From NCBI GenBank assembly GCA_045587085.1, contig JAZNBP010000120.1:1-56915 (forward strand): 56,915 nucleotides of DNA. Direction: 5' to 3'. Each line of letters begins with the position of its first letter. Positions within the stretch are counted from its first letter, which is position 1. Positions 4,164-56,915 of this stretch are shown piece after piece. Under the pieces are notes generated by a model. It saw nothing but the letters and a program-made list of their open reading frames with translations, was not told where the DNA came from and did no database searches. The DNA comes from Acutalibacteraceae bacterium (lineage in GTDB: Bacteria > Bacillota > Clostridia > Oscillospirales > Acutalibacteraceae). Both the position numbers and the translations under genes were made by a program.

Positions 4164-4350
4164 AGAAGTTAGAGAAGTTAGAGAAGTTAGAGAAGTTAGT
4201 TTTGATATAGCTGTAGAAGCTCTAATGATTCAAGCTGAAGCTATCGGATATAAAACAGAAGAACCCAAAGAGTGTGTAAGGTGGGAACTAGCTAAAGCAT
4301 TTTATAAAGAGTTCAAGAAGGAGTATAAGTATGCAGGCACTGATAATTAG
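4129..4350 (+). CDS. Hypothetical protein containing (EVR)4 repeat; start uncertain (4099, 4129 or 4147)
   Basis: ORF 4099..4350; candidate ATGs lack a strong SD; overlaps the end of the upstream gene. Confidence 0.45.
   Translation: MNTIIKMAKEVREVREVREVREVSFDIAVEALMIQAEAIGYKTEEPKECVRWELAKAFYKEFKKEYKYAGTDN
4156..4199 (+). repeat. 9-bp tandem repeat (gaagttaga, about 4.9 copies) encoding EVREVREVREVREV
   Basis: Direct reading of gaagttagagaagttagagaagttagagaagttagagaagttag. Confidence 0.9.
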
Positions 4351-5629: not shown

Positions 5630-5630
5630 T

Positions 5631-6254
5631 ATGAAGTACGAGAACTTACTTGAGTATGCTCGTGAGCATACTATAAAAGAATGTGCAGAACATTATGAGT
5701 GCTGTCTAGGTTGTATGAAGTCTTATTTGTATAAGCATAAAATTGACTTCAAAAGAGTAGACCGAAAGGGGAAAAATAACCCTAATTACAAGCACGGAGG
5801 GAATAATACAAGATTGTTTTTTACTTGGAAAAGTATGCTAGACAGGTGTAGAAGACCCAAAAACAAGCAGTACAAGGACTACGGAGGAAGAGGAATAACA
5901 GTATGCTCAGAATGGGAAGACTTCACTGTATTCAGAGAATGGGCACTTAACAATGGTTATACAGACTCTCTTACAATAGATAGAATAGATAATGATAAAG
6001 GGTATTGTCCTAGTAATTGTCGGTGGGCAAATAAGTATACTCAGAGTAATAATAAGAGTAATAATCGTAAAATAACATACAGAGGGGAAACAAAGACTCT
6101 TGCTCAGTGGTGCAAAGAATTAAACCTCAACTATGGTACTGTCAGCTCACGACTAAATAGAAGTAGAATGAGCATTGACTTAGCACTTACGAGCAATAAT
6201 TTTAACAAGGACAAGAAGCTATATCAAGAGCTAAAACAAAAATTGGAGGAATAA
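5631..6254 (+). CDS. Homing-endonuclease-like DNA-binding protein (YGGRGI / DRIDN..GY..NCRW motif family)
   Basis: GGAG 7 nt before ATG 5631; FFTWKSMLDRCRRPKNKQYKDYGGRGITVCSEWEDF..TIDRIDNDKGYCPSNCRWAN, flanked by HTH-like segments. Confidence 0.4.
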   Translation: MKYENLLEYAREHTIKECAEHYECCLGCMKSYLYKHKIDFKRVDRKGKNNPNYKHGGNNTRLFFTWKSMLDRCRRPKNKQYKDYGGRGITVCSEWEDFTVFREWALNNGYTDSLTIDRIDNDKGYCPSNCRWANKYTQSNNKSNNRKITYRGETKTLAQWCKELNLNYGTVSSRLNRSRMSIDLALTSNNFNKDKKLYQELKQKLEE

Positions 6255-6255
6255 G

Positions 6256-6459
6256 ATGAATCATTGTCTTTATATTCTTTGTTTCATTTTTCTGTTAGCA
6301 CTTGGTTGGTATCACTCTAATGCTCGATATAATGAGCTTGAGCATAGACTTGCTGTTGAAGCGGTAATCAGAGAAGCTCATATCCAAGAGCTTGAAAAGG
6401 AAATCAGATTACTTAAAACGGATGTTGATGTAATTTATTATGGTTTTCCTGAAAAATAA
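6256..6459 (+). CDS. Small membrane protein with N-terminal TM and coiled-coil tail
   Basis: GGAGG SD; MNHCLYILCFIFLLALGWY hydrophobic N-terminus. Confidence 0.55.
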   Translation: MNHCLYILCFIFLLALGWYHSNARYNELEHRLAVEAVIREAHIQELEKEIRLLKTDVDVIYYGFPEK

Positions 6460-6462
6460 TAC

Positions 6463-6491
6463 TTGACATTTTACACCAAGTATATTATACT
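6463..6491 (+). promoter_or_regulatory. Sigma70-type promoter (class I family)
   Basis: TTGACA 6463-6468, spacer ttttacaccaagtatat (17), TATACT 6486-6491. Confidence 0.6.
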
Positions 6492-6513
6492 GAGTGTAAT
6501 AAAGGAGGTCAGT

Positions 6514-14509: not shown

Positions 14510-15679
14510 CTAGTCTCCCTGCTTAGAGAAGGTAACTGAATCTAATCTAGCAATTCTTGATTTTGGTACAGTTACATAATCTACTGTGTTTCCGTTCTGC
14601 TTAAGATTTACAGCTAGAACATCTACTCCCTGCAAGTTAAGATTTTTGAGAACAGAATAAGCTTCGTCTTCTTTAGCGTAGTCTTTATGTACTTCAGGAA
14701 TGAAGTGCTGTAGCAGAGCAATTCGCATAGCTTTTTCAGCGTCATAAGCTGAAGTGTAAAGCTCATCTACTGTGTAGAAAACCTCAATTGAGAAATGAGT
14801 TTCCCTGAAAGGTATCAAGTAGTATGAGTAGTTTCCGTTCACAAATACTTCATTTTCATATGTTACTGTTACAGCGTCGTTCGTATATACAGACGGATAG
14901 ATTACCTTATCAGCAATGACTTTTGCTATATCATTTCTCGGAGAACCTGAGAAGAAAATAGCTAAGTAATATGGAGGTATGGTTATCCCGTCATACACCA
15001 CATCGCTGTCTGTAGAATTGAACTTGACACGACAATCAAACAAATAAGGAAGGTTACGTAATCTGTTTTCAAGCTCCACAAGCGAGTCCTGCTCATTGTA
15101 TCCTGCAAGAATTCTTTCACGAAACTCAAGAGGTGTTTCTTCCTCTGTTCCAAGCAAAGCTTCATTATTTGTGCAAGAGAATACAAGCTCTGAATTAATA
15201 CTTCTGTCCGATGTTACTGTAATACCTGTTTGCTCTGTTACAGGGTAGCTTCCTCGTGTGGTAGACATAGCAATGAAAGAAACGTATAAGCCTGCTTCGA
15301 TTACAGTATCAGAGAGAACTTCAAACTCAAACACAACATCATCCTGAAACTTATAGGTATACATTCCTGCAAGCAGTGTAATGTTCTGTTCTGTCGGATT
15401 TGTAATGACAATGTTAAGCCCTGTAGCCGAAGCTAGGTGTCTTTCTGTTCCTACAAGAGAAGCTACAGAGAGAAGGTCTTCTTCTGAGCAACTTGCAGGG
15501 TCAAACTTATTGCTTAGTACTACACATACATTATTGATGATTTCAAAACCTTTTGAGATAGCCTTGAATATTAAGTACACAACATTTGTGTTAGTACGAG
15601 ACATTTTCTTTGGTGTGATGAGTTCATCGAAGTCATCACACATTTTTGTAAGTATTTCATCAAACGTTAATATCTGCAT
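14510..15679 (-). CDS. Baseplate J-like protein (P2 gpJ / Mu gp47 position)
   Basis: Size 389 aa and synteny after the gp25/W-like gene; GGAGG SD. Confidence 0.45.
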   Translation of the reverse strand: MQILTFDEILTKMCDDFDELITPKKMSRTNTNVVYLIFKAISKGFEIINNVCVVLSNKFDPASCSEEDLLSVASLVGTERHLASATGLNIVITNPTEQNITLLAGMYTYKFQDDVVFEFEVLSDTVIEAGLYVSFIAMSTTRGSYPVTEQTGITVTSDRSINSELVFSCTNNEALLGTEEETPLEFRERILAGYNEQDSLVELENRLRNLPYLFDCRVKFNSTDSDVVYDGITIPPYYLAIFFSGSPRNDIAKVIADKVIYPSVYTNDAVTVTYENEVFVNGNYSYYLIPFRETHFSIEVFYTVDELYTSAYDAEKAMRIALLQHFIPEVHKDYAKEDEAYSVLKNLNLQGVDVLAVNLKQNGNTVDYVTVPKSRIARLDSVTFSKQGD

Positions 15680-16496: not shown

Positions 16497-17432
16497 TTAC
16501 GCCTTAATAAATAGCTTGCCGTTAATTGTAACACCTGAGTTATCTGACTCTATGTTACATCCGTTCTTGTCCTGTAAAGTCATTCCTGAACTTGTAAAAG
16601 TAAGAGCTGTCTTTGCGTCTTTATTATGAATATAAGAAAGATAGCCGTCAGCTCCTATTGTTGCCGTAGCATTATACTTACTGCTGTCTGAATCGTACGA
16701 AACATCAGCCGTAATTGCTCCGTCAGCTCCTATCGTTGCTGTAGTTTTATATTTACTGTTGTCTGAATCGTACGAAACATTAGCTGTTATAGCTCCGTCA
16801 GCTCCAAGCTGTAAATCCGTAGCGTCATTCTTAACTTCTACAGCTCCGTCAGCTCCTGCTGTAACAGTGAGGTGGTCTTTGTCGTTATCTTTATCATATC
16901 CAATACCAATAGACACAGCTCCTTCTTCTGTAGTATCTATTGTAAGGTTGTTCACGTCATCTTCTTTGTTGTAGCCAAGCTTCAGACTAAGCTTGCCTTC
17001 TTCAATCTGAATCATATTCTTATGAGAAGCCGTTTTATACTGATTGAATAAAATAGCTATCCCTGCTGTCAGGCTGTATCCCTTTACCCTTTCATTCACT
17101 ATAATGTTTGTTTTATCACTGTCAGATTCAGGAATAGTGAACATATTTTCATCGTAAGCACGAGGATAGACAACTAACACTCGGTCGCCAACTTTAGGTG
17201 TAATATCAAGAGTGAAAGCTTCACTAGCTATGTTAGCTAATACACAAGTCATAATAACTATATCCTGCTGTGTTCTAGCTACAGCAAGGGAAACATCTAC
17301 AATTCCCTTAGCGTCATCCCGAACTTTCTGCACAATCCCGAAATCTATAATACAACTGCGTTTGACTATAGCTTCAACTGCTGAAGTAAAGTCTAGTCCT
17401 TTCTCTCCTGCTGTAAAATTAATATCTGCCAT
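16497..17432 (-). CDS. Baseplate central spike (gpV / Mu gp45-like) with repeated beta-helix tail
   Basis: N-terminal GIVQKV..VDVSL..P.VGDRVLVVYPR pattern; C-terminal IGADGAITA(D/N)VSYDSD.SKY..TAT repeats. Confidence 0.5.
   Translation of the reverse strand: MADINFTAGEKGLDFTSAVEAIVKRSCIIDFGIVQKVRDDAKGIVDVSLAVARTQQDIVIMTCVLANIASEAFTLDITPKVGDRVLVVYPRAYDENMFTIPESDSDKTNIIVNERVKGYSLTAGIAILFNQYKTASHKNMIQIEEGKLSLKLGYNKEDDVNNLTIDTTEEGAVSIGIGYDKDNDKDHLTVTAGADGAVEVKNDATDLQLGADGAITANVSYDSDNSKYKTTATIGADGAITADVSYDSDSSKYNATATIGADGYLSYIHNKDAKTALTFTSSGMTLQDKNGCNIESDNSGVTINGKLFIKA
16645..16794. repeat. 75-bp tandem duplication (2 full units plus partials) inside the spike gene
   Basis: ccgtcagctcc restarts at 16645, 16720 and 16795; units about 85-90 percent identical by eye. 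Confidence 0.8.
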
Positions 17433-30934: not shown

Positions 30935-32239
30935 CTATCTTTCAAGGAAGCTCAGGTAATCACGTCCTGAAGCACTTCCCATAGAATCCAATTCAGAACC
31001 TTCAACTGAAGGTTTAGCTTCTTTAAGTCCAAGACACTCTTTTACAGCGTCCTGAATGAAAGGCTTAAGCTCATCTTTGAGAGAGTCCTTGATTGCTTTG
31101 ACGATTTCATCTTTTGCTACAAAAGCTGAATCCTTATTACAACCGTCTTTGTCCTCTTCGTCTTTAGAATCCTTGTTTTCTTCGTCCTCAGAGTCCTTAT
31201 TTTCGTCCTCTTCGTCTTTAGAATCCTTGTTTTCTTCCTCAGAGTCCTTGTTAGTATCCTTGTCCTCTTCGTCAGCAGAATCTTTGTTTGCAACTTCGTC
31301 GCCTTTGTCTTCAGGTTTCTTTCCGAGCTTAGCAAAAGCTCTTGAGATTTCACTCAGACTATCTCCACGAATCTCAACCCACATAGAGTCAAGAGTAGTT
31401 GTGAGTTCTGCTTCCTCAGCAACAGCCATATCTTTGTTGCTAAAACAATCTTTAACAACATCCATAAGCTTGTCTTTGGCTTCACAATCCTTAAGGATTT
31501 TCATAGAATCCAAGACTCCTTTCATTTCCTTTGCGAGTTCTTCTTCGGTTGTTCCCTTACTGTTCTTGACAGCTTCGAGTACAGCTTTACCGAATGAAAA
31601 GTTTGAGTCATTGACTGCCTGCTTTCTACTCGCAAGGTAAGCAAAAATGCCTGTAAGCATAGGTTTTATACCCCCTTTCATAATACTATCAATTACAGCA
31701 ACCTCAGAACCACCTCTACCTGCTCTTGTGATTGCCAAATGATTCACTTCTGTAATTTCATCTAAGATAATATCATATCCTACATCTTCAGGATTGTCTA
31801 CAAAATGCTTTCTGCAAGTGTAGCCAACTGATACTTCCTTATTGCTGAGATAATAATTATATAGCTCATCTGTATAGAATGTAATGTTTGATTTAAGACC
31901 AATCTCACCTTCAGCTTCACCTTCCAAAGCAACTACTTCAATTTCTTTATCCAAAGTTCCGCCTGCGAGCTCTTTGAAGTTTTGTGGTGTTACCCAAACG
32001 TCAGGATGTTCTTCTGTTACAGGAAGAGACTTAAACTTGTCTTTAGCTTTTACAATGACGTTTGCAGGACGATATTCTCTGTACCATTCTTTTTCTACAG
32101 GAGGTTTATTATCCTCTGTAATAAAGCTTTCAAGCTCTGACTTGTGATAGAGCTGAATACCTGAACGACAGAGAATTACATCCTTTTGTGTGATAAATGG
32201 AGAAGCGTCCGAATCTTTTACATTAATTGTCTTAGCCAT
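30935..32239 (-). CDS. Scaffolding/prohead-protease-like protein (DUF2213-like) with acidic low-complexity tail
   Basis: Start refined to MAKTINV (ATG 32239); VNHLAITRAGRGGSEVAVIDS resembles the DUF2213 H.A.v..GRaG motif; KDSEEENKDSKDEEDENKDSEDEENKD repeats. Confidence 0.4.
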   Translation of the reverse strand: MAKTINVKDSDASPFITQKDVILCRSGIQLYHKSELESFITEDNKPPVEKEWYREYRPANVIVKAKDKFKSLPVTEEHPDVWVTPQNFKELAGGTLDKEIEVVALEGEAEGEIGLKSNITFYTDELYNYYLSNKEVSVGYTCRKHFVDNPEDVGYDIILDEITEVNHLAITRAGRGGSEVAVIDSIMKGGIKPMLTGIFAYLASRKQAVNDSNFSFGKAVLEAVKNSKGTTEEELAKEMKGVLDSMKILKDCEAKDKLMDVVKDCFSNKDMAVAEEAELTTTLDSMWVEIRGDSLSEISRAFAKLGKKPEDKGDEVANKDSADEEDKDTNKDSEEENKDSKDEEDENKDSEDEENKDSKDEEDKDGCNKDSAFVAKDEIVKAIKDSLKDELKPFIQDAVKECLGLKEAKPSVEGSELDSMGSASGRDYLSFLER

Positions 32240-34705: not shown

Positions 34706-36115
34706 CTACTCCTTTACAGTATTCGGTGCTTGCTTTAATGATATACCCTTAAGCATTGTCGGGTCAAGTGTTCTTGAGTGTACTTCCAACTCTACAGCTT
34801 CAGCTCCTCTAGCTCTTCGTGCTTCATAAAGACGCTCAAGCGTAACACGATACAGAGGTTTAAGCTCCCTCTTCCAAGAAAGAAGATAATGAACTACATA
34901 ACCGAGACAGTCTCCTTTATGGTCAGGAGCTCCCTTATTGCCTTTACTAGGCTGTCCTGTTCTTGGGTCTTTCTGCCAAGTCATAAGTGTTGTTTCCAAA
35001 TCCTTACACATAGGACATATAAATAGATGTTCTGCAACGAAAAGCTTATTACAAGCAAAGTTACGGTCACCAACGAGAGGATTGCACGAACGATAAGCTA
35101 TTTTAATCCCGAAAGTATGGAGCTCTTTCTTAAACTCAACGAAATGCTCTTTATATGTCATATCAGGTATCCAAAGAATATAATTTTCAGGAAAATCATA
35201 TCTAAATACCTCAGGAGCTCGTCTTATATCAGGAAACTCATAATCTTTAATTGCAATTATAGCCTGATTAATAATACAGAAAGCTACAGCGTTATTACCA
35301 AAGCTGTTGAAGTCTTGTCCAATGTAAATCGGAAGCTTGTTGTCTCTTGCATATTCATACAAGTCAGAATCAAGCTTATTCTTATCAGGATTATAGTCAG
35401 GAAATATGAGTCCTGAATCAATGGATACAAACTTACCTTCTAGCAGACAATCACGTTCCTTCTCGTTATAGATAGAATACATATTATCTACGTAATCCTT
35501 AGGTAGATATATGTTATCTCTCGTACGTGCCCTCATAAGTACGTAACCTATGCCTGACTTCTTGAAGTGCATTACAGTTTGATATGTACCTTTCAATCCC
35601 TGAGAAGAAGTTGTGTAAACCATAAATGGTGTTCTGAATCCGTCTATCTGCTGACGACAACGGTCATTTATAGATTTTACTACAGCCATAGCTGTCTGAG
35701 TATCAAGCTCGTCCAACTCGTCTGTGTATGAAGCACATACTGAGAAACCGTAGATATTTGATTCATCTTCGTCAGGGATAAGCAGTAACTCTACATTGCC
35801 TACTGTAATAATGTTATGAGCCTTGTCATATACATATTCTGAGTTAGTCTCTTTTAAGTCCTGCTCCAAAAGACCTGTAAGTGTCTTTTTCATAAAGGTA
35901 AGGTTTTTAGAAGCAATCAGAATCTTCGGATTATGTCCTTCTAAATCCTTCTTACCTAATACCTGCTTGATTGTATATTCAATAGCTTTACATAAAGCTG
36001 ATGTCTTACCTGAAGCGTATCCTGCTACTAGAAAGAAAAAGTTTATCTCAGGAAACCTTGAAGGTGCTTGTACAAGCTGACCTTGGTGCGGTAAGAGCTT
36101 AACTAGCGTTGCCAT
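34706..36115 (-). CDS. terL: Terminase large subunit
   Basis: Walker A VAGYASGKTS, Walker B-like CASYTDELDE, C-terminal nuclease-like IGQDFN segment. Confidence 0.7.
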   Translation of the reverse strand: MATLVKLLPHQGQLVQAPSRFPEINFFFLVAGYASGKTSALCKAIEYTIKQVLGKKDLEGHNPKILIASKNLTFMKKTLTGLLEQDLKETNSEYVYDKAHNIITVGNVELLLIPDEDESNIYGFSVCASYTDELDELDTQTAMAVVKSINDRCRQQIDGFRTPFMVYTTSSQGLKGTYQTVMHFKKSGIGYVLMRARTRDNIYLPKDYVDNMYSIYNEKERDCLLEGKFVSIDSGLIFPDYNPDKNKLDSDLYEYARDNKLPIYIGQDFNSFGNNAVAFCIINQAIIAIKDYEFPDIRRAPEVFRYDFPENYILWIPDMTYKEHFVEFKKELHTFGIKIAYRSCNPLVGDRNFACNKLFVAEHLFICPMCKDLETTLMTWQKDPRTGQPSKGNKGAPDHKGDCLGYVVHYLLSWKRELKPLYRVTLERLYEARRARGAEAVELEVHSRTLDPTMLKGISLKQAPNTVKE

Positions 36116-36700: not shown

Positions 36701-36784
36701 CAAAGAGACTCCTCAATCTGCCATTGATGTTATTCTCTTTTCCTTCGTTGGGGCTTTCAGAAATGAGAGCCCCTTTTTATTTTT
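36701..36784 (+). ncRNA. Candidate short terminated transcript (about 84 nt sRNA)
   Basis: Bounded by the promoter above and the terminator at 36750-36784; no SD-led ORF inside. Confidence 0.3.
36750..36784 (+). terminator. Rho-independent terminator in the control region
   Basis: GGGGCTTTC (36750-36758) pairs GAGAGCCCC (36765-36773), then TTTTTATTTT. Confidence 0.65.
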
Positions 36785-37076: not shown

Positions 37077-37307
37077 TTAAAATTTCATTATGTAAGTTTT
37101 AATGTTTCCCGATTTCGTGCACTTGAAGTATTTAATATCTTTCATATTATCATTGTCACTAATTAAGTGTGCAACACTCAGGACACCTACAGTAAAATAA
37201 TAACTATCATCACTTTTATTGTAATAATAAACACCTTCAAGTGTTTTCTTTTTGTCCATAGCACAATCAATTATATTGTGTCTGATTTGTGTTTCATTGA
37301 ATTTCAT
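37077..37307 (-). CDS. Solitary hypothetical protein (76 aa) inside the control region
   Basis: GGAGG 8 nt before ATG 37307; GGGGAAATCCCC box about 70 nt upstream. Confidence 0.5.
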   Translation of the reverse strand: MKFNETQIRHNIIDCAMDKKKTLEGVYYYNKSDDSYYFTVGVLSVAHLISDNDNMKDIKYFKCTKSGNIKTYIMKF

Positions 37308-37377
37308 AATTCATAACCTCCAAAAAATGATTTAATTTATAATATAAATATAGCGAATAAAACGGGCTTATGGTATA

Positions 37378-37389
37378 GGGGAAATCCCC
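37378..37389. promoter_or_regulatory. Palindromic GGGGAAATCCCC box (early-cassette box copy)
   Basis: Direct reading; same box family as the 8 plus-strand cassettes. Confidence 0.5.
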
Positions 37390-37848
37390 TATATTTCAGA
37401 ATATAACAAAATATTATATTTACGTTATTCAGGAATAAGAAACGCCTGTTATCTCAAAAAGAGTAACAAAAAGAGTAAGTTTAATTTTATATTTAATTTG
37501 TAGCCACGCAAAACAAAATGAAAAAAGATAAATTGTATACAATTTAGTTGTTTTCGATTTGAATGAACACCATATAATTTTACTATATTTAATTGTCATC
37601 TTATCCCGTTAGTCCTGTATAACATAAATACTATACAAATAAAGCGTAACAAAACTACTATACATTTGAAATAGTGTTGAAATCTTGAAAAGTTTCTGAA
37701 AATCTCAAAAAATCGAATAGAAAATCGTACTTACTAGAAAAATGACTAAAAAACGTTTTACTTACTTTTTTATATACTACAGAAAACAAAAAGAGTCATA
37801 AAACTAGTAAGTAAAAAACAGCAATTCAAAATTGAAAAAATATAGATT

Positions 37849-37878
37849 TATACAATTTTTGAATAGATTTGTTATACT
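37849..37878 (+). promoter_or_regulatory. Extended -10 promoter for the first early gene
   Basis: TATACA N18, with TGtTATACT (37870-37878). Confidence 0.4.
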
Positions 37879-37964
37879 ATAAACTATTGCGTCGTGCTAT
37901 TCTTAAATCATCAAGCGACGCATTGAGCGACACAAAATTAAATCATATAAGGAGATTTGAAGAT

Positions 37965-38267
37965 ATGACAAAACAAGAGTTTACAAACAAGATTAAAGCA
38001 GTTGCTGAAGGTTTGACAGATTATGAAAAGAAAGTAGTAGACTACTTTGCATTTAATTATCAGACTTTGTACGAAAACTGTTGCGACAATGCGAATTTCG
38101 TTTCTATTGACGAAGTTGAGACAAGCGAAAAAATCAGCAAAAAAGTATTACGTGGCGTTTTCTCTTCTATGATTAAGAAAGGTTTAATTTGTGACGGTGA
38201 AGGTAACGGCGTAGACGATGACGTTTTTACCTCGAATATCGGGGAATTGCTGTTTATTTCTACCTGA
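37965..38267 (+). CDS. Hypothetical early protein
   Basis: AAGGAG before ATG 37965 (internal to ORF 37869..38267). Confidence 0.5.
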   Translation: MTKQEFTNKIKAVAEGLTDYEKKVVDYFAFNYQTLYENCCDNANFVSIDEVETSEKISKKVLRGVFSSMIKKGLICDGEGNGVDDDVFTSNIGELLFIST

Positions 38268-38329
38268 ATGATAAAACTGATTTTGACTCAATGACTGAAG
38301 AACAGATAAATAAGTTTTATTTCTAGTTA

Positions 38330-38370
38330 GGGGATTTCCCTTATAGTAAATCTATAGGGGAATATATAAA
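38330..38370 (+). promoter_or_regulatory. Early promoter-leader cassette
   Basis: Box GGGGATTTCCC, hairpin CCCtTATAG/CTATAGGGG, TATAGT N17 TATAAA. Confidence 0.5.
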
Positions 38371-38402
38371 ATAAACATAGACACAATAACAGGAGGTGTA
38401 TT

Positions 38403-38690
38403 ATGTATACAACAAAATTAAACAAGACAACACAGAAGGCACAAGCATTTATTAATGCTTATTTTGGAAGTCACTATTTCTCTGTTCGTGACTGTTATTC
38501 TACTAGAACGTACACAAAGGAAAGTATTGAAAACAAAATCAAGGAACGTATGAGAAACGAAGGTTTAATTGACTACAGGGTAATTTCTTATAATACTTTC
38601 CATTTTACTTGCGGATATATGGACAAGTCACAAAATATTTTGTACGTGGAAACACACGCAAATATTTTCGAAATTGATTTACGTGATTAA
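38403..38690 (+). CDS. Hypothetical early protein
   Basis: AGGAGG SD. Confidence 0.55.
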   Translation: MYTTKLNKTTQKAQAFINAYFGSHYFSVRDCYSTRTYTKESIENKIKERMRNEGLIDYRVISYNTFHFTCGYMDKSQNILYVETHANIFEIDLRD

Positions 38691-38746
38691 AACAATTTTT
38701 CCCCTTCTGTAATGGGAGGGGAAAATAGTTTAAGAGATTAAATACT

Positions 38747-38932
38747 ATGGATTTATTTATCATTCAACGTATTAAAGGCGTTGCACAGATAGGGAAAGAA
38801 TACCACAATATAACACTTGAGACAGTAAAAACAATTGTTTCTAATATGTTATCAAATTATGATAATTTCATATGTACAGCACAGAGCAAAGAGGAAGCAA
38901 ATAAAACTTGTTTCAAGCTGAATGGATTCTAA
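38747..38932 (+). CDS. Hypothetical early protein
   Basis: ORF track; weak SD (AAGAG). Confidence 0.4.
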   Translation: MDLFIIQRIKGVAQIGKEYHNITLETVKTIVSNMLSNYDNFICTAQSKEEANKTCFKLNGF

Positions 38933-38950
38933 CTATCCCTGTTATAGATA

Positions 38951-38992
38951 GGCAAAATCCCCGATAGATAAATTATCAGGATTTTATATAAT
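38951..38992 (+). promoter_or_regulatory. Early promoter-leader cassette
   Basis: Box GGCAAAATCCCC, TAGATA 38965-70, N16, TATAAT 38987-92; 27 nt identical to 40000-40026. Confidence 0.55.
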
Positions 38993-39023
38993 AAACTTAT
39001 ATTCAATTTTTGGAGGTTATTTT

Positions 39024-39194
39024 ATGAATAAAGCAAAGTTTAATTATAAGGGAAACAATTATACTATTCTCTTCTTACCTTGTGGAAATATGGCAAGTGT
39101 AACAAAGAATAACGAAGGTACAAGAGATATTAAGTTTGACAATAAACTAACTGTAAAGAGATTTCTAAACGGGCTTGAGAAAATCAAGTTTTAA
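39024..39194 (+). CDS. Hypothetical early protein (56 aa), below ORF-track cutoff
   Basis: TGGAGG 7 nt before ATG 39024, behind a cassette. Confidence 0.5.
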   Translation: MNKAKFNYKGNNYTILFLPCGNMASVTKNNEGTRDIKFDNKLTVKRFLNGLEKIKF

Positions 39195-39213
39195 TATCAG
39201 GAGATTAAACACT

Positions 39214-39546
39214 ATGAAAACATTACTTATATACAAAATCAATTTTTCGTCAAGAGACTCAATTGAGACAACTTTAATATATCGTTATGGAAATACAAAG
39301 GACTTGTACGATAACTGTAAAAACAGTTATTACAGCACAGGACAGAAAATACTTGAGTACGAAACAGTAGATTATAATGAACTTGAAAAGCGTATTTTAT
39401 CGGGAAAAGTTGCACTGTTTCCGATTTCAAAGAACACAGATACATTTTTAATCTGTAATCATAACAGACTTGGAATTATCCCTGTTATGACACCCGTAAA
39501 ATACTATAAAGAGTTTAAAAGCATTTTTGAAAAGAATAATTTATAA
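39214..39546 (+). CDS. Hypothetical early protein
   Basis: AGGAG before ATG 39214 (MKTLL). Confidence 0.5.
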   Translation: MKTLLIYKINFSSRDSIETTLIYRYGNTKDLYDNCKNSYYSTGQKILEYETVDYNELEKRILSGKVALFPISKNTDTFLICNHNRLGIIPVMTPVKYYKEFKSIFEKNNL

Positions 39547-39548
39547 TA

Positions 39549-39590
39549 GGTATTTTCCCCTATGGTAAAAATTATCAAAGGGGATATAAT
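39549..39590 (+). promoter_or_regulatory. Early promoter-leader cassette
   Basis: Box GGTATTTTCCCC, CCCC/GGGG hairpin, TATAAT 39585-90, conserved leader AAAAGCATAAATCAATTTTTGGAGGT. Confidence 0.5.
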
Positions 39591-39622
39591 AAAAGCATAA
39601 ATCAATTTTTGGAGGTTTAGTT

Positions 39623-39997
39623 ATGGCAAAGGCTAAAGTAACTAGAAAATGGATAAGAGATAACTACTACTGTTGTAGTGTAGGTTATTGTGATTTACAG
39701 AACTTACTGCATTATCAGTCAGCAAGTTACTACACTTGTGGGGTTTACGGTTGGAATATGGACGTTTACACGTTCGGGGACTATGCTATAACCACAGGTT
39801 ATAGAGGAATGATAGACAATGTAACAAAAGACTATTATTCCCTGATTCGTGAGTACGACAATAAGGCAAGAGAACTATTGAAAGAACAGTGGAACAGACC
39901 ACACGACGAATTGAAGACAGAAGTCAATAATCTTCTTAAAGAGTTTTTACAAAAGGTTTTTGATACAAAGGATTCTAACAGATTCTATATTTATTAG
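39623..39997 (+). CDS. Hypothetical early protein (Cys/Tyr/Trp-rich)
   Basis: GGAGG SD; WIRDNYYCCSVGYCDLQNLLHYQSASYYTCGVYGWNMDVY. Confidence 0.55.
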   Translation: MAKAKVTRKWIRDNYYCCSVGYCDLQNLLHYQSASYYTCGVYGWNMDVYTFGDYAITTGYRGMIDNVTKDYYSLIREYDNKARELLKEQWNRPHDELKTEVNNLLKEFLQKVFDTKDSNRFYIY

Positions 39998-40039
39998 GGA
40001 AAATCCCCGATAGATAAATTATCAGGGAGACAGTAAAAT
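39997..40039 (+). promoter_or_regulatory. Early promoter-leader cassette
   Basis: Box GGGAAAATCCCC, TAGATA 40011-16, N17, TAAAAT 40034-39. Confidence 0.55.
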
Positions 40040-40071
40040 AGAACTATAAGCAATTTATGGAGGTAATTAAA

Positions 40072-40332
40072 ATGAAAGGAATTATCAGAAAGGGGAGTAA
40101 AGCAGAAAAGAGACTTCGAGCTGTCTCTGAGGATTTACAGGAGAAAATCAACTCAGGTAAAATCGGTAGTATGTCACCTATGGATATATCGGCTATCTGT
40201 TACGTGGCGAAAAAACTTGTGGTTTTTGGTGTAACAAGTACCTTTATTACTAAAGTTGCGGACTATTACAAGAGTTTTGGATTTACTGTTACAAAAGAGT
40301 TTGACAACATACAGTTTGTCATTGTTGCATAG
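40072..40332 (+). CDS. Hypothetical early protein
   Basis: GGAGG before ATG 40072. Confidence 0.5.
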   Translation: MKGIIRKGSKAEKRLRAVSEDLQEKINSGKIGSMSPMDISAICYVAKKLVVFGVTSTFITKVADYYKSFGFTVTKEFDNIQFVIVA

Positions 40333-40342
40333 GAGGAAGTTT

Positions 40343-40648
40343 ATGGCTAAAGATAAACAAAGAATTGTGTACAATGAAAAACTCATTCAGGCTATAAAGA
40401 AATACATTCTTGAAGATGAGGACAAAGAAGAAGTTGTAAATGAACTCAAGCGTTATAAATCTGAGTTCAGGTACTGCATAGGGTACAATTGGTATGCTTA
40501 CGGCAACATCTTGCCTTATTACTCACAGATTCGGGACTTCTATGAAAAGAATGGAATTGAAGCAAGTGAAAATGACAATATATTACAGAAGCATTTTGAA
40601 AAGCATATTCAAAGAGCTATTGATGAGATTCTGAAAGAAAACAGTTAG
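40343..40648 (+). CDS. Hypothetical early protein
   Basis: AGGAGG before ATG 40343. Confidence 0.5.
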   Translation: MAKDKQRIVYNEKLIQAIKKYILEDEDKEEVVNELKRYKSEFRYCIGYNWYAYGNILPYYSQIRDFYEKNGIEASENDNILQKHFEKHIQRAIDEILKENS

Positions 40649-40690
40649 GTAAAATCCCCGATAGACGAAAATCTATCAGGGGAGTAGAAT
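40648..40690 (+). promoter_or_regulatory. Early promoter-leader cassette
   Basis: Box GGTAAAATCCCC, hairpin CCCCGATAGA/TCTATCaGGGG, TAGACG 40662-67, N17, TAGAAT 40685-90. Confidence 0.55.
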
Positions 40691-40721
40691 AAAAGCATAA
40701 ACAATATTTGGAGGTTTAGTT

Positions 40722-41357
40722 ATGGAAAGAAAGACTTACACAATCTTTGATTCGTACGATACATATTCGGACGAAAGGAAAAAAGAAGCAAAGGAAAATA
40801 TTATCGAAAATGCTTTTTTCGATTCAGATGAAGACGATTGTATCACTGTTACTGATAACTTTGGTAAAGAAGTGAAGGTAACACGTGAAGAGTACGAAAA
40901 GACTATCACCGATGACCGTGTAACCGATGAGTGCTGTTTTCTTGAACAGGCTTGGTTTGAAGATGAAAGGAGTGAACTCAAGCGTGTCTCTGAAGGTGAG
41001 GTATTGGCTATTGCGTCGCTTGGCTTGTGGAATGGTAGACGTTACGGCTATAAGAAAGTTCAGTCTCTTGAAAACATTTTGTACTCAGATTGTGACTATG
41101 AAAGAGTTTTCGTTGATTCTAACGGGGATATTAGAAAAGAGGAAAGTCATCACGACGGAAACAATTCTATCCTGTACAGATATTGGAAAGAAGGCTTGAG
41201 TGAAGAGCAGAAGGAAAACTTTCTGAATAAGATTTACTACGGAAAGTGTTCACAAAAAGATATTACACGTTACACACGTAAAGCAGGCTTGGGAATTGCT
41301 CAGGCGTTCGGGTGGAAAGTAAGAGGGCTTAAAAGACTTACGATTCACGTAGCGTAA
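40722..41357 (+). CDS. Hypothetical early protein (211 aa)
   Basis: GGAGG SD behind a cassette. Confidence 0.55.
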   Translation: MERKTYTIFDSYDTYSDERKKEAKENIIENAFFDSDEDDCITVTDNFGKEVKVTREEYEKTITDDRVTDECCFLEQAWFEDERSELKRVSEGEVLAIASLGLWNGRRYGYKKVQSLENILYSDCDYERVFVDSNGDIRKEESHHDGNNSILYRYWKEGLSEEQKENFLNKIYYGKCSQKDITRYTRKAGLGIAQAFGWKVRGLKRLTIHVA

Positions 41358-41362
41358 AGATA

Positions 41363-41405
41363 GGTAAAATACCTGATAGACGATAGAGTCTATCAGGCGT
41401 AAAAT
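41363..41405 (+). promoter_or_regulatory. Early promoter-leader cassette
   Basis: Box GGTAAAATACCT, perfect 10-bp hairpin CCTGATAGAC/GTCTATCAGG, TAGACG N17 TAAAAT 41400-05. Confidence 0.55.
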
Positions 41406-41437
41406 AAAAGCATAATCCATATGAGGAGGAAAACATT

Positions 41438-42073
41438 ATGGAAAGAAAAATTTTGACTTCACAGAAGGAAGTAGTAAAGAACAGCTTGAAAGAGGACGGT
41501 TTCAACTTCAGTGGAGTAGACGTAGTAAAGTATCTTGGAGATATTTCAGCAGAGACTTATTGTGCTCTTATTGGACTTGACTACCACACGGTAGCTAAGC
41601 TTGGAGACATCACTTACAGTATTTCATACCTGAAAGAGAATGAACTTTTCTTACTCTTGTGCGAGACTTACGTTGATTCAGTTAAGAACGATAAACTTTC
41701 TGTTATCTTGGAAGATACAGAAGATTATCTTGAAATGTTCAAAACAGAAGATAAGGCTCAGTGCTTACCTTCAAATTGGAAAGAACTGATTACTGACGAG
41801 CAGTTACACGACATTTTACAGGAGCGTAATATTCAGACAATCGAGTGTTTGAACGATGATGACGTTCCTGATGAAATGAAGGAAAGAATTGCTAGAGATT
41901 GGTGCGAAAACAACTCAGATGAAATTAAGGACTACTTGGATGAAACAGACAAGATGATAATTGCGTACAATTATATTGAGGAAAATCCTTCTGATTCAGG
42001 AAGTGAGGTTGCTAAGCACATTGGTGATTATGACGCTAAGGACTTGATTAAAGAATTGGTAGACAATCTCTAA
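41438..42073 (+). CDS. Highly acidic early protein (DNA-mimic / anti-restriction candidate)
   Basis: GAGGAGG SD; D/E-rich throughout; function speculative. Confidence 0.3.
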   Translation: MERKILTSQKEVVKNSLKEDGFNFSGVDVVKYLGDISAETYCALIGLDYHTVAKLGDITYSISYLKENELFLLLCETYVDSVKNDKLSVILEDTEDYLEMFKTEDKAQCLPSNWKELITDEQLHDILQERNIQTIECLNDDDVPDEMKERIARDWCENNSDEIKDYLDETDKMIIAYNYIEENPSDSGSEVAKHIGDYDAKDLIKELVDNL

Positions 42074-42086
42074 ACAGGAGTGAACG

Positions 42087-42371
42087 ATGAACTCAGTAAT
42101 TTTATACGGACACTTTGCGGACGTCAGAGCTTCAACTAACGGAAGTGTAGAAGTAAAAGCAGACTTTTCTTGGAAGTCATTAGACGGAAGTTACTCAGCA
42201 ACATTCGTTACTGTAGATGACGCTTGGATAGAAGTAAGAGTAGCAACATCTTCTTTTGAAGAGTTTGAAAAGCGGATAAAACAAAATCCCTTCTGTAAAA
42301 TTGAGGGTAAACTTCGTACAGAAGTTGGACTTGGTAGCGGAATTGTGAGAAATTACGTTTGGTTAGAATAG
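42087..42371 (+). CDS. Small OB-fold/SSB-like protein candidate
   Basis: MNSVILYGHFADVRASTNGSVEVKADFS.. and ..KIEGKLRTE resemble the SSB N-terminal OB pattern. Confidence 0.3.
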   Translation: MNSVILYGHFADVRASTNGSVEVKADFSWKSLDGSYSATFVTVDDAWIEVRVATSSFEEFEKRIKQNPFCKIEGKLRTEVGLGSGIVRNYVWLE

Positions 42372-42413
42372 GGAAAATACCCTATAGACAATCTATACTA
42401 AGTGTGGTATGAT
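42371..42413 (+). promoter_or_regulatory. Early cassette / class I hybrid promoter
   Basis: Box GGGAAAATACCC, TAGACA 42385-90, spacer atctatactaagtgtgg (17), TATGAT 42408-13. Confidence 0.5.
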
Positions 42414-42445
42414 AAAGGTATAAACAGTTTACGGAGGTAAATACT

Positions 42446-49170: not shown

Positions 49171-50874
49171 ATGATTAACAATGTAGATTCACTTAAGTTT
49201 ACTCAGATATTTAAGGGCAAATCTAACACTTATGTTCGTAATGAACTACCTAAAGAAAAGCCTGAAGCAGGTAAGAAAATCAAAACAATCATCACTAACA
49301 ACGAAGGTAAGGTAGATAAAGACCTTTTATTTCATCACTTGAACGGAGACTTCGGAGTTGGTGTTTGTCCTGTAAACGCAGAAGGTAAATGCTTCTTTGG
49401 GGTAATTGATATTGATTATTACAAATCTAAAATCAGAAAAGTACTTCAGTTTATAAAAGAGTATCAGCTTCCATTACTTCCGTTCAGAAGTAAGAGTGGA
49501 GGACTTCACGTATATCTGATACTCTCGAAAGCAGTCTCAGCTAAACATATGCGTGAGATACTTAATCAAATTGTATATTATTTATCTCTTGATTTGCTTT
49601 ATGGTAAAGCAAAGGTAGAGATATTTCCTAAACAGGAGAAAGCAGAAGGTTTCGGCTCTTCTGTTACATTACCTTATTTTAATGCTGAAAAACCATATAC
49701 ATACCTCTTGGACTTGGACAGTAACCCTGTTCCCTTCTCTGAAGCTTTGGATTACATTCAGCATAGATTTACTTCAATAGAAGCTGTTAAAGAAGCGTTA
49801 GACAATCTTCCTTATAATGACGCTCCTCCTTGTATACAGCGTATCCTGATTTCTGAAGAAGTTGGTGGAGAGGATACAGGAAGAAACAATTTCTTGTACT
49901 CATTCGCTGTCTATGCTAAGAAGAAGTATGGGAACGGCTTTGAGGATTATGTAAAAGAAATCAACGAGAAGTTTGAATGTCCTCTTGAGGACAATGTAGT
50001 TGAACAGACCTGTACCTCAGTTCGTGAGCACGAGTATGTTTATAAGTGTAAGGATATTCCTTGTAACTCTTTCTGTGATAAACCAACTTGCCGTAAAAGA
50101 GAGTTTGGGCTTGGTAGAGATAAAGGACATTTCACAGGAATTGATTACGGTCAGCTGTTCCGTTACAAAAGTGCAGAGCCTTATTACATTTGGAAGCTTC
50201 GCTTACAAGGTCAAGAAGCTTGGGTAGACGTCATCTTTAAGGATGAGGGCTATCTTCTTGACCAAAAGAACTTTGCTAAGATGTGTGTAAGATACCTCAA
50301 TCAAGCTCCTATGCAGGTTTCAAATAATGATTGGTATGCAATTCTTAACTCTGTTCTTCCTAACGTTCAGGACGTAGAAGTTAAACAGGAAAGTGATACT
50401 TCTGCTTTGTCAATGGTTAAGTTTGCATTTATTAAGTACCTTGCAAACAAGCAGGCAAGACGTGACTCTCCTCAGCAGATTCGTGTTAATCTTTGTGTAA
50501 GACGAATGGAGTGTGGTGTTCCAAAATACTACTTTACTCATATCGGCTTTGCTGAGTTCCTGAAGAATCAGAAAATCACTTTCGATTTCAATATGCTTCG
50601 TGAAACATTATTGAAGTTCGGAGCTAAAGAAGATGTTCTTGTTTATGAAGATTCTCTTGGTGAGGAAAGAAGCTTTCCGTGTTGGAGCAAGACAGAGGAT
50701 GATGTTATTGAAGACGCTTACAACGGAGCTATGGAAGTTGAGGAAGGGGATAGAAAAGCAATGTCTATAGAAAGTGTCGGAGACGCTTCTAACGTTGATG
50801 AGTACGAGCCAAAAGAAGAGAAAGAAAAGCCTTATACAGATGAAGATAGAAAAGAAGGGGAGGAATTATTCTAA
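49171..50874 (+). CDS. Archaeo-eukaryotic-type primase-polymerase (prim-pol)
   Basis: GVIDIDYY (DxD) and SKSGGLHVYLIL (sGG.H.y) catalytic motifs; Cys-rich zinc motif CKDIPCNSFCDKPTC. Confidence 0.6.
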   Translation: MINNVDSLKFTQIFKGKSNTYVRNELPKEKPEAGKKIKTIITNNEGKVDKDLLFHHLNGDFGVGVCPVNAEGKCFFGVIDIDYYKSKIRKVLQFIKEYQLPLLPFRSKSGGLHVYLILSKAVSAKHMREILNQIVYYLSLDLLYGKAKVEIFPKQEKAEGFGSSVTLPYFNAEKPYTYLLDLDSNPVPFSEALDYIQHRFTSIEAVKEALDNLPYNDAPPCIQRILISEEVGGEDTGRNNFLYSFAVYAKKKYGNGFEDYVKEINEKFECPLEDNVVEQTCTSVREHEYVYKCKDIPCNSFCDKPTCRKREFGLGRDKGHFTGIDYGQLFRYKSAEPYYIWKLRLQGQEAWVDVIFKDEGYLLDQKNFAKMCVRYLNQAPMQVSNNDWYAILNSVLPNVQDVEVKQESDTSALSMVKFAFIKYLANKQARRDSPQQIRVNLCVRRMECGVPKYYFTHIGFAEFLKNQKITFDFNMLRETLLKFGAKEDVLVYEDSLGEERSFPCWSKTEDDVIEDAYNGAMEVEEGDRKAMSIESVGDASNVDEYEPKEEKEKPYTDEDRKEGEELF

Positions 50875-51488
50875 TGCTTAAGAAATGTAAGAAAGCTCTC
50901 CTTCTTTCTGACATCACACATTTTGCTGACACATACAGAGAAATAGCAGATGAATTAGGAGTAACTCTAACTGTTGAATCAGATTGGAACGTCAAATACA
51001 GACTGAATCAGGAAGTAGTAATCCTCGGCTCTAAGTTTTTAGACAAACTTAATCCTGATTACTTCCCTCAGGCAGTACTGATTCTGAAATCAGATGAGAA
51101 GCCATTCCCTTACATACAGCAGGGGATAACAAGATTTATATGTGATTATCAGAACACTAAGGAACTTGGCTTGGCTTTCTTCTATGATATGCCTGTGTAT
51201 ATAAGTTATACCACAGTAGAGCTTGAAGAAATGCTTAAAGGCTTTACAGCACATAGTTTTGTGGTTGGCGAATATAACTTTGATTTCTTAGCTGACTCTT
51301 TTAAGTTCAGAGGGAAACAAATCTATTTAGCTAAATCTCAGAAGCGTTACCTTGCTGAGTGGTTACTTGGCGGTCATAAAGATAATAAACGAAGAATGTT
51401 ACTTTGTACTTTACGTAAGAAGTTCGGAGAAACATTTTTATCAGATGTAGACCGTTTCGGTCATATCATAGGAGGAAAAGATGAGTAA
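50874..51488 (+). CDS. Atypical response-regulator-like protein: degenerate receiver-like N-domain plus OmpR/PhoB-type winged helix
   Basis: C-terminal FDFLADSFKFRGKQIYLAKSQKRYLAEWLL..LRKKFGE matches the Trans_reg_C pattern; N-terminal KALLLSD..VVILGS lacks the canonical acidic pocket. Confidence 0.4.
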   Translation: MLKKCKKALLLSDITHFADTYREIADELGVTLTVESDWNVKYRLNQEVVILGSKFLDKLNPDYFPQAVLILKSDEKPFPYIQQGITRFICDYQNTKELGLAFFYDMPVYISYTTVELEEMLKGFTAHSFVVGEYNFDFLADSFKFRGKQIYLAKSQKRYLAEWLLGGHKDNKRRMLLCTLRKKFGETFLSDVDRFGHIIGGKDE

Positions 51489-53802: not shown

Positions 53803-54023
53803 TTTAGAAGCTTTCAAAAAGGTGGAAAACAGAGAAGCTTGGGGAGAAGTGGATACTTGAGTATAAGGAGAATCAAAAAGTAAAGTTAGACGGAAACTTC
53901 TTTATGGATAGGTACTCTGTTTATGATTTTAGTCGCTCTCCTGAAGCACACGCAGGCTTGCAACAGCTCATAGCTTATGAAGAGTACGGAGAGTACTATG
54001 TCCTTAAAGAAGAATATTGTTGA
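53786..54023 (+). pseudogene. ORF interrupted by a +1 frame change at a GGGG run (pseudogene, sequencing error or recoding)
   Basis: AGGAGG-led ATG 53786 stops at 53858-60. The +1 frame is open from 53807 to TGA 54021-23. Removing one G of 53841-44 gives a continuous 78-aa ORF. Confidence 0.45.
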
Positions 54024-54048
54024 CATACTAAACCAAGTGTAGTATAGT
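54020..54048 (+). promoter_or_regulatory. Sigma70-type promoter (class I family)
   Basis: TTGACA 54020-25, spacer tactaaaccaagtgtag (17), TATAGT 54043-48. Confidence 0.6.
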
Positions 54049-54069
54049 AAATGATGTAAGGAGTTGGAT

Positions 54070-56763: not shown

Positions 56764-56915
56764 TTACCTTCAAAAACTTGAAGCAGAGAACGAGCAGATA
56801 AAGAACTCTGATACTTTGTGTAAGTTAATCGGTGAGCAGAAAATAAAGATTGTAGAACTTGAAGCACAGATTGAGAAAATGAAACAATGTGGAAATTGTG
56901 GTAACGGAACTATTG
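56735..56915 (+). CDS. 5' part of junction-spanning ORF (continues at 1..224 of the circular map)
   Basis: AAGGAGATAAAAGAAAATGAC cassette; ATG 56735; frame continuous into the overlap. Confidence 0.6.
   Translation, partial: MTKKQKAFFDYLQKLEAENEQIKNSDTLCKLIGEQKIKIVELEAQIEKMKQCGNCGNGTI
56775..56915. repeat. Terminal overlap copy 2 (identical to 1-141)
   Basis: Direct reading. Confidence 0.9.

Follow-up and report, generated by a model that had tools for sequence, protein, structure and literature searches.

Stop codon-to-start codon cassettes with a stem-loop and a predicted promoter as probable regulatory and exchange junctions of early genes in an uncultured phage lineage

How are the small early genes of an uncultured phage supplied with expression signals, and along which seams are they exchanged between relatives? 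The question is raised by contig JAZNBP010000120.1 (assembly GCA_045587085.1), all 56,915 nt of which were analyzed as one stretch, called here the window. Because the first 141 nt (1-141) are an exact duplication of the last 141 nt (56775-56915), the record is a circularly closed or terminally redundant phage genome of ~56,774 bp. An initial sequence-only reading had described a promoter-leader cassette of 60-80 bp, with a conserved box and a hairpin, in front of nearly every early gene. The repeated unit does exist, but it measures ~80 nt when counted from TAGG, which holds the stop codon, to the ATG. Its frequency was overstated: a cassette stands 5' of 7 of the 12 genes in 37965-43174, i.e., at every one or two genes. 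We propose that the cassettes are probably composite regulatory junctions of the promoter-early stem-loop (PeSL) type, each combining a stop codon, a hairpin, a promoter, and a ribosome-binding site, and that they also serve as recombination junctions for modules of early ORFans.

The eight plus-strand copies align over ~85 nt with a mean column identity of 72% (Table 1). All of them lie where the sequence-only reading had placed them, and an nhmmer profile built from the eight recovers every one (E about 1e-13 to 1e-18). The box pattern GGNAAAATMCCC, with at most one mismatch, has nine matches against 0.9 expected, a number reached in 0 of 100 shuffles; the match at 5770 belongs to no cassette and is due to chance. 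Two finer details were also verified. The perfect 10-bp hairpin at 41372-41397 consists of the arms CCTGATAGAC (41372-41381) and GTCTATCAGG (41388-41397), and the 27 nt shared by 38954-38980 and 40000-40026, in cassettes 2 and 4, are part of a 32-nt match at 97% identity. The box that was said to face the minus-strand gene 37077-37307 was found by nhmmer as a degenerate minus-strand copy (37392-37307, E 0.0075). Its counterpart in the closest relative, L018, is also on the minus strand (4274-4189, E 4.5e-5).

The main copy set comprises 50 non-redundant copies from seven genomes, and their consensus is wTAGG T AAAAT CCCC GATAGAC -loop- (T)TATCGGGG a -filler- TAgAAT AAAAGCATA aACAATTTATGGAGGT TTAnTT ATG. 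Bases 1-3 are always TAG or TAA. They form the true stop codon of the upstream open reading frame (ORF) in at least 23 of the 50 copies, and in most of the others an ORF ends no more than 9 nt upstream. The box claimed earlier is present as a sequence, but not as a free-standing motif. In the gap-free alignment it resolves into TA(G/A)G, two bases (T/G, A/G), an A/T core ending in T, and a C-run, that is, a stop codon, an A/T core, and the C-run that opens the hairpin. The core takes up 5-6 nt (AAAAT, AATTT, ATTTT) between GG and the C-run in all copies, at approximately -42 to -47, and is shorter than a full UP element. The idea that the box occurs in both orientations was abandoned, as the alignment has fixed flanks around a variable core. 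In one case the core is ATTTT in the window (39552-39556) and AAAAT in L018 (6266-6270), the cassettes being otherwise identical. These two sequences are mutual reverse complements, and the difference could have arisen by inversion of a short segment between the G and C runs on its two sides, or by three substitutions in a row.

A predicted promoter follows. The 5' arm of the stem contains a -35-like hexamer, which is TAGACn in 24 copies, TAGATn in 7, TGGACA in 5, and weaker in the rest. The -10 hexamer, TAnAAT, is separated from it by 17 nt in 37 copies, by 16 nt in 8, and by 18 nt in 5; the initial description is correct on all three points (weak -35-like hexamers, spacers of 16-18 nt, and -10 hexamers). 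The seventh base 3' of the -10 hexamer is A in 50 of 50 copies, preceded in 50 of 50 by C or T. A pyrimidine at -1 and a purine at +1 make a standard transcription start, and this A is the predicted +1. The predicted leader of ~26 nt carries GGAGG, and every one of the 50 copies lies on the coding strand with its 3' end at an ATG preceded by GGAGG. In its geometry, the set of 50 copies from seven genomes supports the interpretation as a promoter-leader cassette. A second promoter family was observed 5' of replication and recombination genes (3236-3278, 6457-6499, 45039-45081, 48145-48187, and 54014-54056). It is near-consensus (TTGACA, 17 nt, TAtAnT); its spacer, TAcACnnAGTGTA, is conserved, and an A/T-rich tract lies upstream. 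Cassette 7 reads as a chimera of the two families, because its spacer and -10 hexamer are common to the TTGACA family.

Table 1. Cassette copies in the window. Promoter elements, start sites, and stem-loops are predicted; SD, Shine-Dalgarno sequence.
Copy	Span	Strand	Genes	Box	Stem-loop	-35-like	-10	+1	ATG	Remarks
1	38328..38405	+	5' of gene 38403-38690	TAGGGGATTT	38338-38360 (CCCTTATAG/CTATAGGGG)	TAGTAA 38344-38349	TAAAAT 38367-38372	A 38379	38403	SD AGGAGG; nhmmer E 7e-13; covariance model 41.5 bits
2	38949..39026	+	5' of gene 39024-39194	TAGGCAAAAT	38959-38981, weakened	TAGATA 38965-38970	TATAAT 38987-38992	38999	39024	
3	39547..39625	+	5' of gene O (39623-39997)	TAGGTATTTT	39557-39583	TGGTAA 39563-39568	TATAAT 39585-39590	39597	39623	
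4	39995..40074	+	5' of gene 40072-40332; TAG is the stop codon of gene O		40004-40028	TAGATA 40011-40016	TAAAAT 40034-40039	40046	40072	
5	40646..40724	+	5' of gene G (40722-41357); TAG is the stop codon of gene 40343-40648		40656-40681 (CCCCGATAGA/TCTATCaGGGG)	TAGACG 40662-40667	TAGAAT 40685-40690	40697	40722	best nhmmer copy, E 8e-18
6	41361..41440	+	5' of gene H (41438-42073)		perfect 10-bp stem	TAGACG 41377-41382	TAAAAT 41400-41405	41412	41438	folding z = -7.7
7	42369..42448	+	5' of SprT-like gene 42446-43174; TAG is the stop codon of gene 42087-42371	self-folded (ATAGGG-AAAATA-CCCTAT)	without downstream 3' arm	TAGACA 42385-42390	TATGAT 42408-42413, TGn-extended	42420		
8 (distal)	47800..47877	+	5' of gene 47875-48147; TAG is the stop codon of ORF 47371-47802		weak	TAGATT 47816-47821	TATAAT 47838-47843	47850	47875	nhmmer E 3e-15; kept in L018 at 15505-15587
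Degenerate	37305..37392	-	5' of gene 37077-37307	palindrome TAGGGGA-(2 nt)-TCCCCTA 37376-37391	without downstream arm					leader/SD TTTTTGGAGGT

Relatives of the phage (the L-numbered genomes of this text apart from L001, L003, and L017) were reached through homologues of the SprT-like protein, whose cluster has 147 matches, by an alignment-based search and by looking up exact proteins. Absence of the motif from related genomes had been named as the observation that would speak for mere chance similarity. In fact, 6-10 cassettes are present in each of seven metagenomic phage genomes of ~56-59 kb, in which the SprT-like protein is at least 78% identical to that of the window. Nine further cassettes occur in L018, and 11 other metagenome contigs have 1-3 each. 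Profile and covariance-model searches revealed no such cassette in relatives with an SprT-like protein 57-75% identical. A short pattern scan of viral contigs yielded one true relative; L001 and L003, from the same scan, were discarded, their matches being chance ones inside coding sequence.

Other members of the family have hairpins of their own. In the sister clade L015, the intercistronic hairpin is CCCGG-loop-CCGGG, directly 5' of TAGAAT AAAATCATAAA. In the sister clade L016, it is TCTGGAGC-loop-GCTCCAGA, in some cases downstream of a TTGACA promoter and in some without a promoter, and L008 has different hairpin-plus-leader units. Within the cassette clade, copies of the box and hairpin without the promoter are found at L004 9467, L012 9470, and L014 9478. 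Since sister clades carry their own hairpins and promoter-less copies exist, the gene-boundary hairpin is the more general trait of the phage family, and its fusion to a promoter the clade-specific form. Some cassette leaders have an extra hairpin insert of ~30 nt, GATACGTCATACACGGAGCGTAGCGACGTAT (L004 6843-6885, L009 3221-3265), and the related motif CGAGCGTAGCGAG lies just 5' of two other cassettes (L009 ~3140, L012 ~8175); these inserts may be a second small repeat family.

The stem consists of 8-10 bp, with at least seven pairs starting at the C-run in 38 of the 50 copies. RNAfold gave a mean of -14.6 kcal/mol for 50-nt segments, and z < -2 relative to dinucleotide shuffles in 41 of 50. 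A covariance model built from 20 copies identified 39 plus-strand units of box and hairpin with E < 2e-4 in the seven genomes and none in more distant relatives. In the covariance alignment 93.7% of cells are paired, and both sides have changed at six of nine pairs (17 cells). The observed covariation score is reached by 0 of 500 shuffles, and partners slid by 1-3 columns pair at 34-60% only. The compensatory arm variants are CCCCG/CGGGG, CCCCT/AGGGG, CCTCG/CGAGG, and CCCTG/CAGGG. Copies without the downstream arm, such as cassette 7, fold the box on itself (ATAGGG-loop-CCCTAT), and for this fold, too, there is a compensatory variant, ATAAGG/CCTTAT at L012 14728. Thus some hairpin directly follows the stop codon in nearly every copy, only weak ones being found at 47800 and 38949 of the window. 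The covariation indicates that the stem-loop is selected as a structure. Mismatches in the stem interior, compared to see which strand forms the stem, were about 5 for G-U vs. 3 for A-C and favored neither strand. A stand-alone hairpin, TTTTCCCC-13 nt-GGGGAAAA, was noticed at 38697-38727, between genes 38403-38690 and 38747-38932; at this site L018 has an extra 76-aa gene (5184-5414).

The geometry of the hairpin floats, while that of the promoter does not. The loop is 3-11 nt long, and on its 3' side the stem ends at positions ranging from 2 nt within the -10 hexamer to 9 nt upstream of it, the filler keeping the -35/-10 spacing constant. Fixed promoter geometry combined with floating hairpin geometry argues for a real promoter, and against both a rigid dimeric operator and a hairpin promoter of the phage N4 type.

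Gene exchange was traced by comparison with L018, which is 88-95% identical to the window across 33-53 kb and differs from it in the early region by whole-module events. Three such events were found, and in each of them one or more breakpoints fall at the edge of a cassette or within it; only the replacement of gene O is cassette-bounded on both sides. Here identity spans all of cassette 3, ends ~4 nt 5' of the ATG at 39623, and resumes exactly at the TAGG of cassette 4 (39995), and the place of gene O is occupied in L018 by two unrelated genes with another cassette between them. In the second event gene Q is replaced by J, with identity ending right after the ATG at 42087 and resuming at the first base of cassette 7. 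The third is the absence from L018 of 37938-38371, comprising a Shine-Dalgarno sequence, gene 37965-38267, and the box, stem, and -10 hexamer of cassette 1; its right breakpoint falls just after the -10 hexamer. Insertions or deletions of a gene together with one cassette are found also in comparison with L014.

The upstream neighbor of a given gene changes from genome to genome, the two being linked by a cassette. In the seven-genome comparison, gene G stands in six genomes behind five different upstream genes, with a cassette always between, and genes B, H, and O show the same pattern. These observations, and the arrest of replacements and indels at cassette edges, directly support the suggested shuffling. 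Judged by identity of the 5' half, a cassette tends to travel with its downstream gene (0.75 between cassettes that share their downstream gene, 0.71 between those that share the upstream gene, and 0.67 where neither is shared). Conservation of some cassettes exceeds that of the neighboring genes. The cassettes at L004 7259 and L013 2467 have an identical 38-nt box-and-hairpin half, and the G-family genes downstream of them are ~70% identical, each judged by its match to the window. A supposed second copy of G in L018 (6871-7503, 210 aa) proved to be unrelated; the G copy of L018 is a truncated orthologue.

The explanation that we favor, PeSL-type junctions, would work as follows. Each cassette fills the whole gap between two early genes, provides any upstream ORF with a stop codon (TAG or TAA), and continues with the short A/T tract at ~-42 to -47. 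The next element is a G/C-clamped stem-loop whose 5' arm would double as a weak -35 (TAGACn). A predicted -10 of the host sigma-70/sigma-A type is placed at 17 ± 1 nt, with the fixed predicted start A 7 nt beyond it, and a standard leader of ~26 nt with a strong Shine-Dalgarno sequence leads to the ATG. Host RNA polymerase, presumably early in infection, would start at each cassette, so that every one- or two-gene module would be a transcription unit of its own. In RNA reading through from the upstream module the stem-loop would form and might act as an attenuator, an insulator, or a protective 3' end. Homologous recombination between cassettes, within a genome or between co-infecting relatives, could delete, insert, replace, or reorder modules, because each of them is flanked by ~80 nt of near-identical sequence. 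Each exchanged module would then bring its own expression signals.

Several observations weigh against this explanation. The -35-like hexamer is weak (TAGACn, 4-5 of 6 positions), and a generic promoter scan of the AT-rich region is barely enriched, with 38 promoters found vs. 31 expected. The left breakpoint of the Q/J replacement is a plain junction of Shine-Dalgarno sequence and ATG with no cassette, and other indels are cassette-free on the whole, namely the W/S/Z genes inside the B-F pair in L011 and the extra gene L018 5184-5414. Homogenization within genomes is weakly supported: near-identical pairs make up 5 of 160 within genomes vs. 9 of 1065 between genomes, and a permutation test on mean identity gave p = 0.06. 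Further, no cassette stem was called a terminator on the plus strand, where a U-tract is missing, and four stems of the window were called on the minus strand only. In about a third of copies, those with the A/T core in its T-rich form, a T-run is missing on either side. A canonical terminator, hairpin plus T-run, does exist in the same genome at 36750-36773. Strong intrinsic termination is not expected of stems lacking a plus-strand U-run in a genome that has such a terminator, and efficient termination by the cassette stem appears doubtful. A role in attenuation or insulation against read-through, or in protecting the 3' end of the upstream message, is likelier than strong termination.

The closest known counterpart is provided by the PeSL cassettes of the T4-like myoviruses RB49/phi1, T4/PST, and KVP40/nt-1 (Arbiol et al., 2010, PMC2839356; Comeau et al., 2014, PMC4122927). 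According to the same studies, a PeSL consists of an AT-rich tract, a sigma-70 promoter, a poly-G/poly-C stem-loop mostly between -35 and -10, a Shine-Dalgarno sequence, and an ATG. PeSLs run from stop codon to ATG, cluster among ORFans, and have lineage-specific stems and degraded half copies; recombination between them leads to insertions, deletions, replacements, and mini-circles, and the stem of one PeSL lowered lacZ expression to the same degree as rrnB T1 (PMC2839356; PMC4122927).

Every sequence-level feature of PeSLs is recognizable in the present cassettes. Both have an AT-rich tract 5' of the -35, a sigma-70-type -35/N17/-10 arrangement (here by sequence), and a Shine-Dalgarno sequence with an ATG at the 3' end. 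In both, a stem-loop of G/C tracts lies between -35 and -10 or overlaps the -10, and many copies cluster among small ORFans, with stems particular to each lineage and with degraded "half" copies. Close relatives differ, in both cases, by cassette-bounded insertions, deletions, and replacements, although here some indels are cassette-free. The differences are that the present phage, of 57 kb, is unrelated to T4-like phages, that the 5' arm of the stem contains its -35, which is weak, and that the first three bases of its cassette are always a stop codon. Terminator and promoter activity and mini-circles have been demonstrated experimentally for PeSLs; the stems of the present cassettes have no U-tract. 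In the literature searched, PeSL-type cassettes have been documented so far only in T4-like myoviruses of Gram-negative hosts, and the papers that discuss PeSLs deal with T4-like or jumbo phages only. The PeSL principle is already established; what is new here is its occurrence in an unrelated, uncultured phage lineage. This suggests that self-contained junctions of promoter, hairpin, and ribosome-binding site are a general, convergent solution for expressing and exchanging accessory ORFans. The cassette model also delimits exchangeable modules, predicts exact transcription start sites, and lists the individually promoted early ORFans as candidates for host-takeover or anti-defense activity.

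Another start-associated unit has been described in Cluster K mycobacteriophages. The start-associated sequence (SAS) is a conserved 13-bp repeat at the translation start of a subset of genes, directly 5' of the start codon, with no recognized promoter and with a lineage-own consensus. About half of the SASs have an imperfect inverted repeat in front of them, the spacer of which ranges from 4 to 13 bp (extended SAS, ESAS; Pope et al., 2011, PMC3203893). SAS/ESAS and the present cassettes have in common a conserved unit associated with gene starts, an inverted repeat with a variable spacer, and a lineage-specific consensus. Their sequences, however, are unrelated, and the present cassette has a -10 hexamer and a fixed predicted start between the inverted repeat and the Shine-Dalgarno sequence.

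Of the explanations that compete with PeSL-type junctions, the strongest is an operator: a phage or host protein bound to the inverted repeat and/or the box, over the -35 and spacer, would switch the early gene set jointly. The repeat does overlap the -35 and spacer, which is the classical operator position, and the arms are conserved beyond pairing, GATAG being nearly invariant; however, conservation of GATAGAC is also explained by its role as a -35. The clade-own stems (CCCGG..CCGGG in L015, CTGGAGC..GCTCCAG in L016) are as for a co-evolving specific factor, and the three units of box and hairpin without a promoter point the same way. On the other hand, the distance between the arms differs by as much as 8 nt (loop length 3-11 nt) with no helical phasing, so that there is no fixed half-site distance, the arms change by compensatory substitution (CCTCG/CGAGG, CCCTG/CAGGG, CCCCT/AGGGG), and A and T interchange freely in the A/T core of the box. 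The initial suggestion had been a regulator site or a terminator-promoter unit. The latter fits better, a rigid dimeric regulator being unsuited to arms that covary and whose separation varies by 8 nt.

Candidates for a protein reading the operator were also considered. A member of gene family H (41438-42073) was found in each of the 7 cassette genomes and in 0 of 4 cassette-less relatives, but this co-occurrence is confounded by phylogeny, and H has neither a Pfam match nor a PDB fold match. The protein of 50874-51488, proposed earlier as a winged helix-turn-helix regulator, has no Pfam or PHROG match. Pfam and PHROG scans of ~35 window ORFs, with the minus-strand structural module outside the scan, gave no regulator, sigma factor, RNA polymerase, transposase, or integrase. 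Taken together, we consider an operator unlikely.

A related scenario involves a lineage-specific phage factor, for which protein H would be the candidate. By recognizing the box and stem-loop, it might cut polycistronic early RNA at gene boundaries or catalyze site-specific exchange of modules; in the latter case the cassettes would form an integron-like system in a lytic phage. We leave some room for this scenario because the stem is homogeneous in each sister clade, because promoter-less copies of box and hairpin exist, and because a 100% identical cassette lies beside ~70% identical genes. Protein H is acidic, 211 aa long, and has homologues only within this phage group. Its AlphaFold model has a pLDDT of 72, the best PDB match has E = 0.45, and no match is informative; with no informative fold or family, H as the cassette-reading factor was a dead end. 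On balance, such a factor is quite improbable.

The hairpins could also be RNA punctuation with no link to promoters, i.e., processing or stabilizing stem-loops, or terminators of antisense transcription, that adjoin promoters by chance. In the early region of phage T7, the intercistronic RNase III sites are longer, interrupted stems in one polycistronic transcript made from upstream promoters. As in T7, hairpins lie here between consecutive early genes and could define or stabilize the 3' ends of upstream messages; unlike the cassettes, the T7 sites are not promoter-fused and are not known as recombination junctions. This explanation accommodates the wider occurrence of intercistronic hairpins in the family (L015 and L016 have them both close to promoters and away from them, and in L016 they follow a TTGACA promoter), as well as the promoter-less copies of box and hairpin. 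Four hairpins of the window are, moreover, terminator-like on the minus strand, with the stem followed by ATTTTACC. But about one third of copies, with their T-rich A/T core, have no hairpin followed by a U-run on either strand, and nothing in the orientation of the genes across 38-48 kb leads one to expect antisense transcription. For RNase III, 8-10 bp make a short stem. Finally, in 38 of 50 copies the -35 is formed by the 5' arm, at a fixed 17 ± 1 nt from the -10, which makes the elements physically fused. We therefore regard mere RNA punctuation as very unlikely.

A hairpin promoter of the phage N4 type is used by a phage-encoded RNA polymerase and has a short stem, a 3-nt loop, and a fixed distance to the start site. 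That the cassettes are such promoters, or else selfish miniature mobile repeats without a regulatory role, is highly improbable: the stem-loop does adjoin the predicted start site and the repeat is multiplied within genomes, but the scan of ~35 window ORFs described above found neither a polymerase or sigma factor nor a transposase or integrase, the hairpin-to-start distance and stem geometry vary, each of the 50 copies points the same way as the genes and reaches exactly from stop codon to ATG, and no Rfam family matches.

The cassettes belong to a genome with a clear division of strands. The minus strand, from ~36.6 kb down to 9.8 kb, carries structural genes, including those for the large terminase (34706-36115, 469 aa) and a portal-like protein. 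The plus-strand block extends from 37965, past the end of the window, to ~8.2 kb. It opens with ~12 small genes, followed by those for the SprT-like protein, a PD-(D/E)XK nuclease, a DUF1351 protein, an AEP primase, a UvrD helicase, and a family A DNA polymerase. None of the 10 early proteins checked (37965-42073) has a Pfam family or a PHROG function, and the set of genes in this region differs from genome to genome. Rfam 15 has no match in 37300-42500 at E <= 1; its only above-gathering hit in the whole window is a tRNA.

The lineage is distant from cultured phages. Distant blastn against 50,697 phage records gave no isolate match at the DNA level for 37300-45200. By protein, the nearest isolates are only 27-36% identical, and the large terminase is at most 36% identical to that of any isolate (Tetrasphaera phage TJE1). 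Going by sample names only, the phages appear to come from ruminant-gut or rumen metagenomes, and, judging by the GGAGG Shine-Dalgarno sequences, a Gram-positive-like host is probable. A 19-mer scan covering 185,579 species genomes had a single match, at L017 5799-5827 (CP070782.1, a Phycisphaerales metagenome-assembled genome), where 25 nt, AATAGGTAAAATCCCCGATAGACTT, are identical to the cassette consensus. The surroundings are GC-rich chromosome, otherwise dissimilar and outside any CRISPR array, and the match is either chance or a stray fragment. With this single 19-mer match, no CRISPR array, and no further similarity, the Phycisphaerales genome was not taken as that of the host.

Some minor observations concern other parts of these genomes. 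Where the structural and early modules diverge, the intergenic region of L008 contains ~10 tandem copies of a 19-nt unit, AAAAAGCGGGATATTTCAG (5560-5745), which look like iterons; the window counterpart, 37400-37900, contains only loose repeats such as CAAAAAGAGTAA. The tRNA of the window is a tRNA-like gene of 92 nt at 46395-46486 (Rfam tRNA, 44.5 bits), reported by ARAGORN as "tRNA-???" with no anticodon, and the sequence around it (46351-47230) differs from L018. The large terminase of several relatives (L011 1-709, L014 1080-3518, L015 88-2514) has 808-818 aa and contains the intein-splicing domain PF14890, while in the window, L012, and L016 it has no intein. Repeats inside large genes are found at 11130-12024, 12135-13014, 16645-16794, 31144-31308, and 4144-4211. 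They include 120-nt periodic repeats in an 885-aa ORF, which is probably a tail fiber, a 75-nt tandem pair, an acidic repeat tract, and a 9-nt tandem repeat AGAGAAGTT. An HNH endonuclease gene is located in the replication module of the window (5598-6254), and a different HNH_3 gene 3' of the primase gene in L016 (16432-16929); both may be mobile elements.

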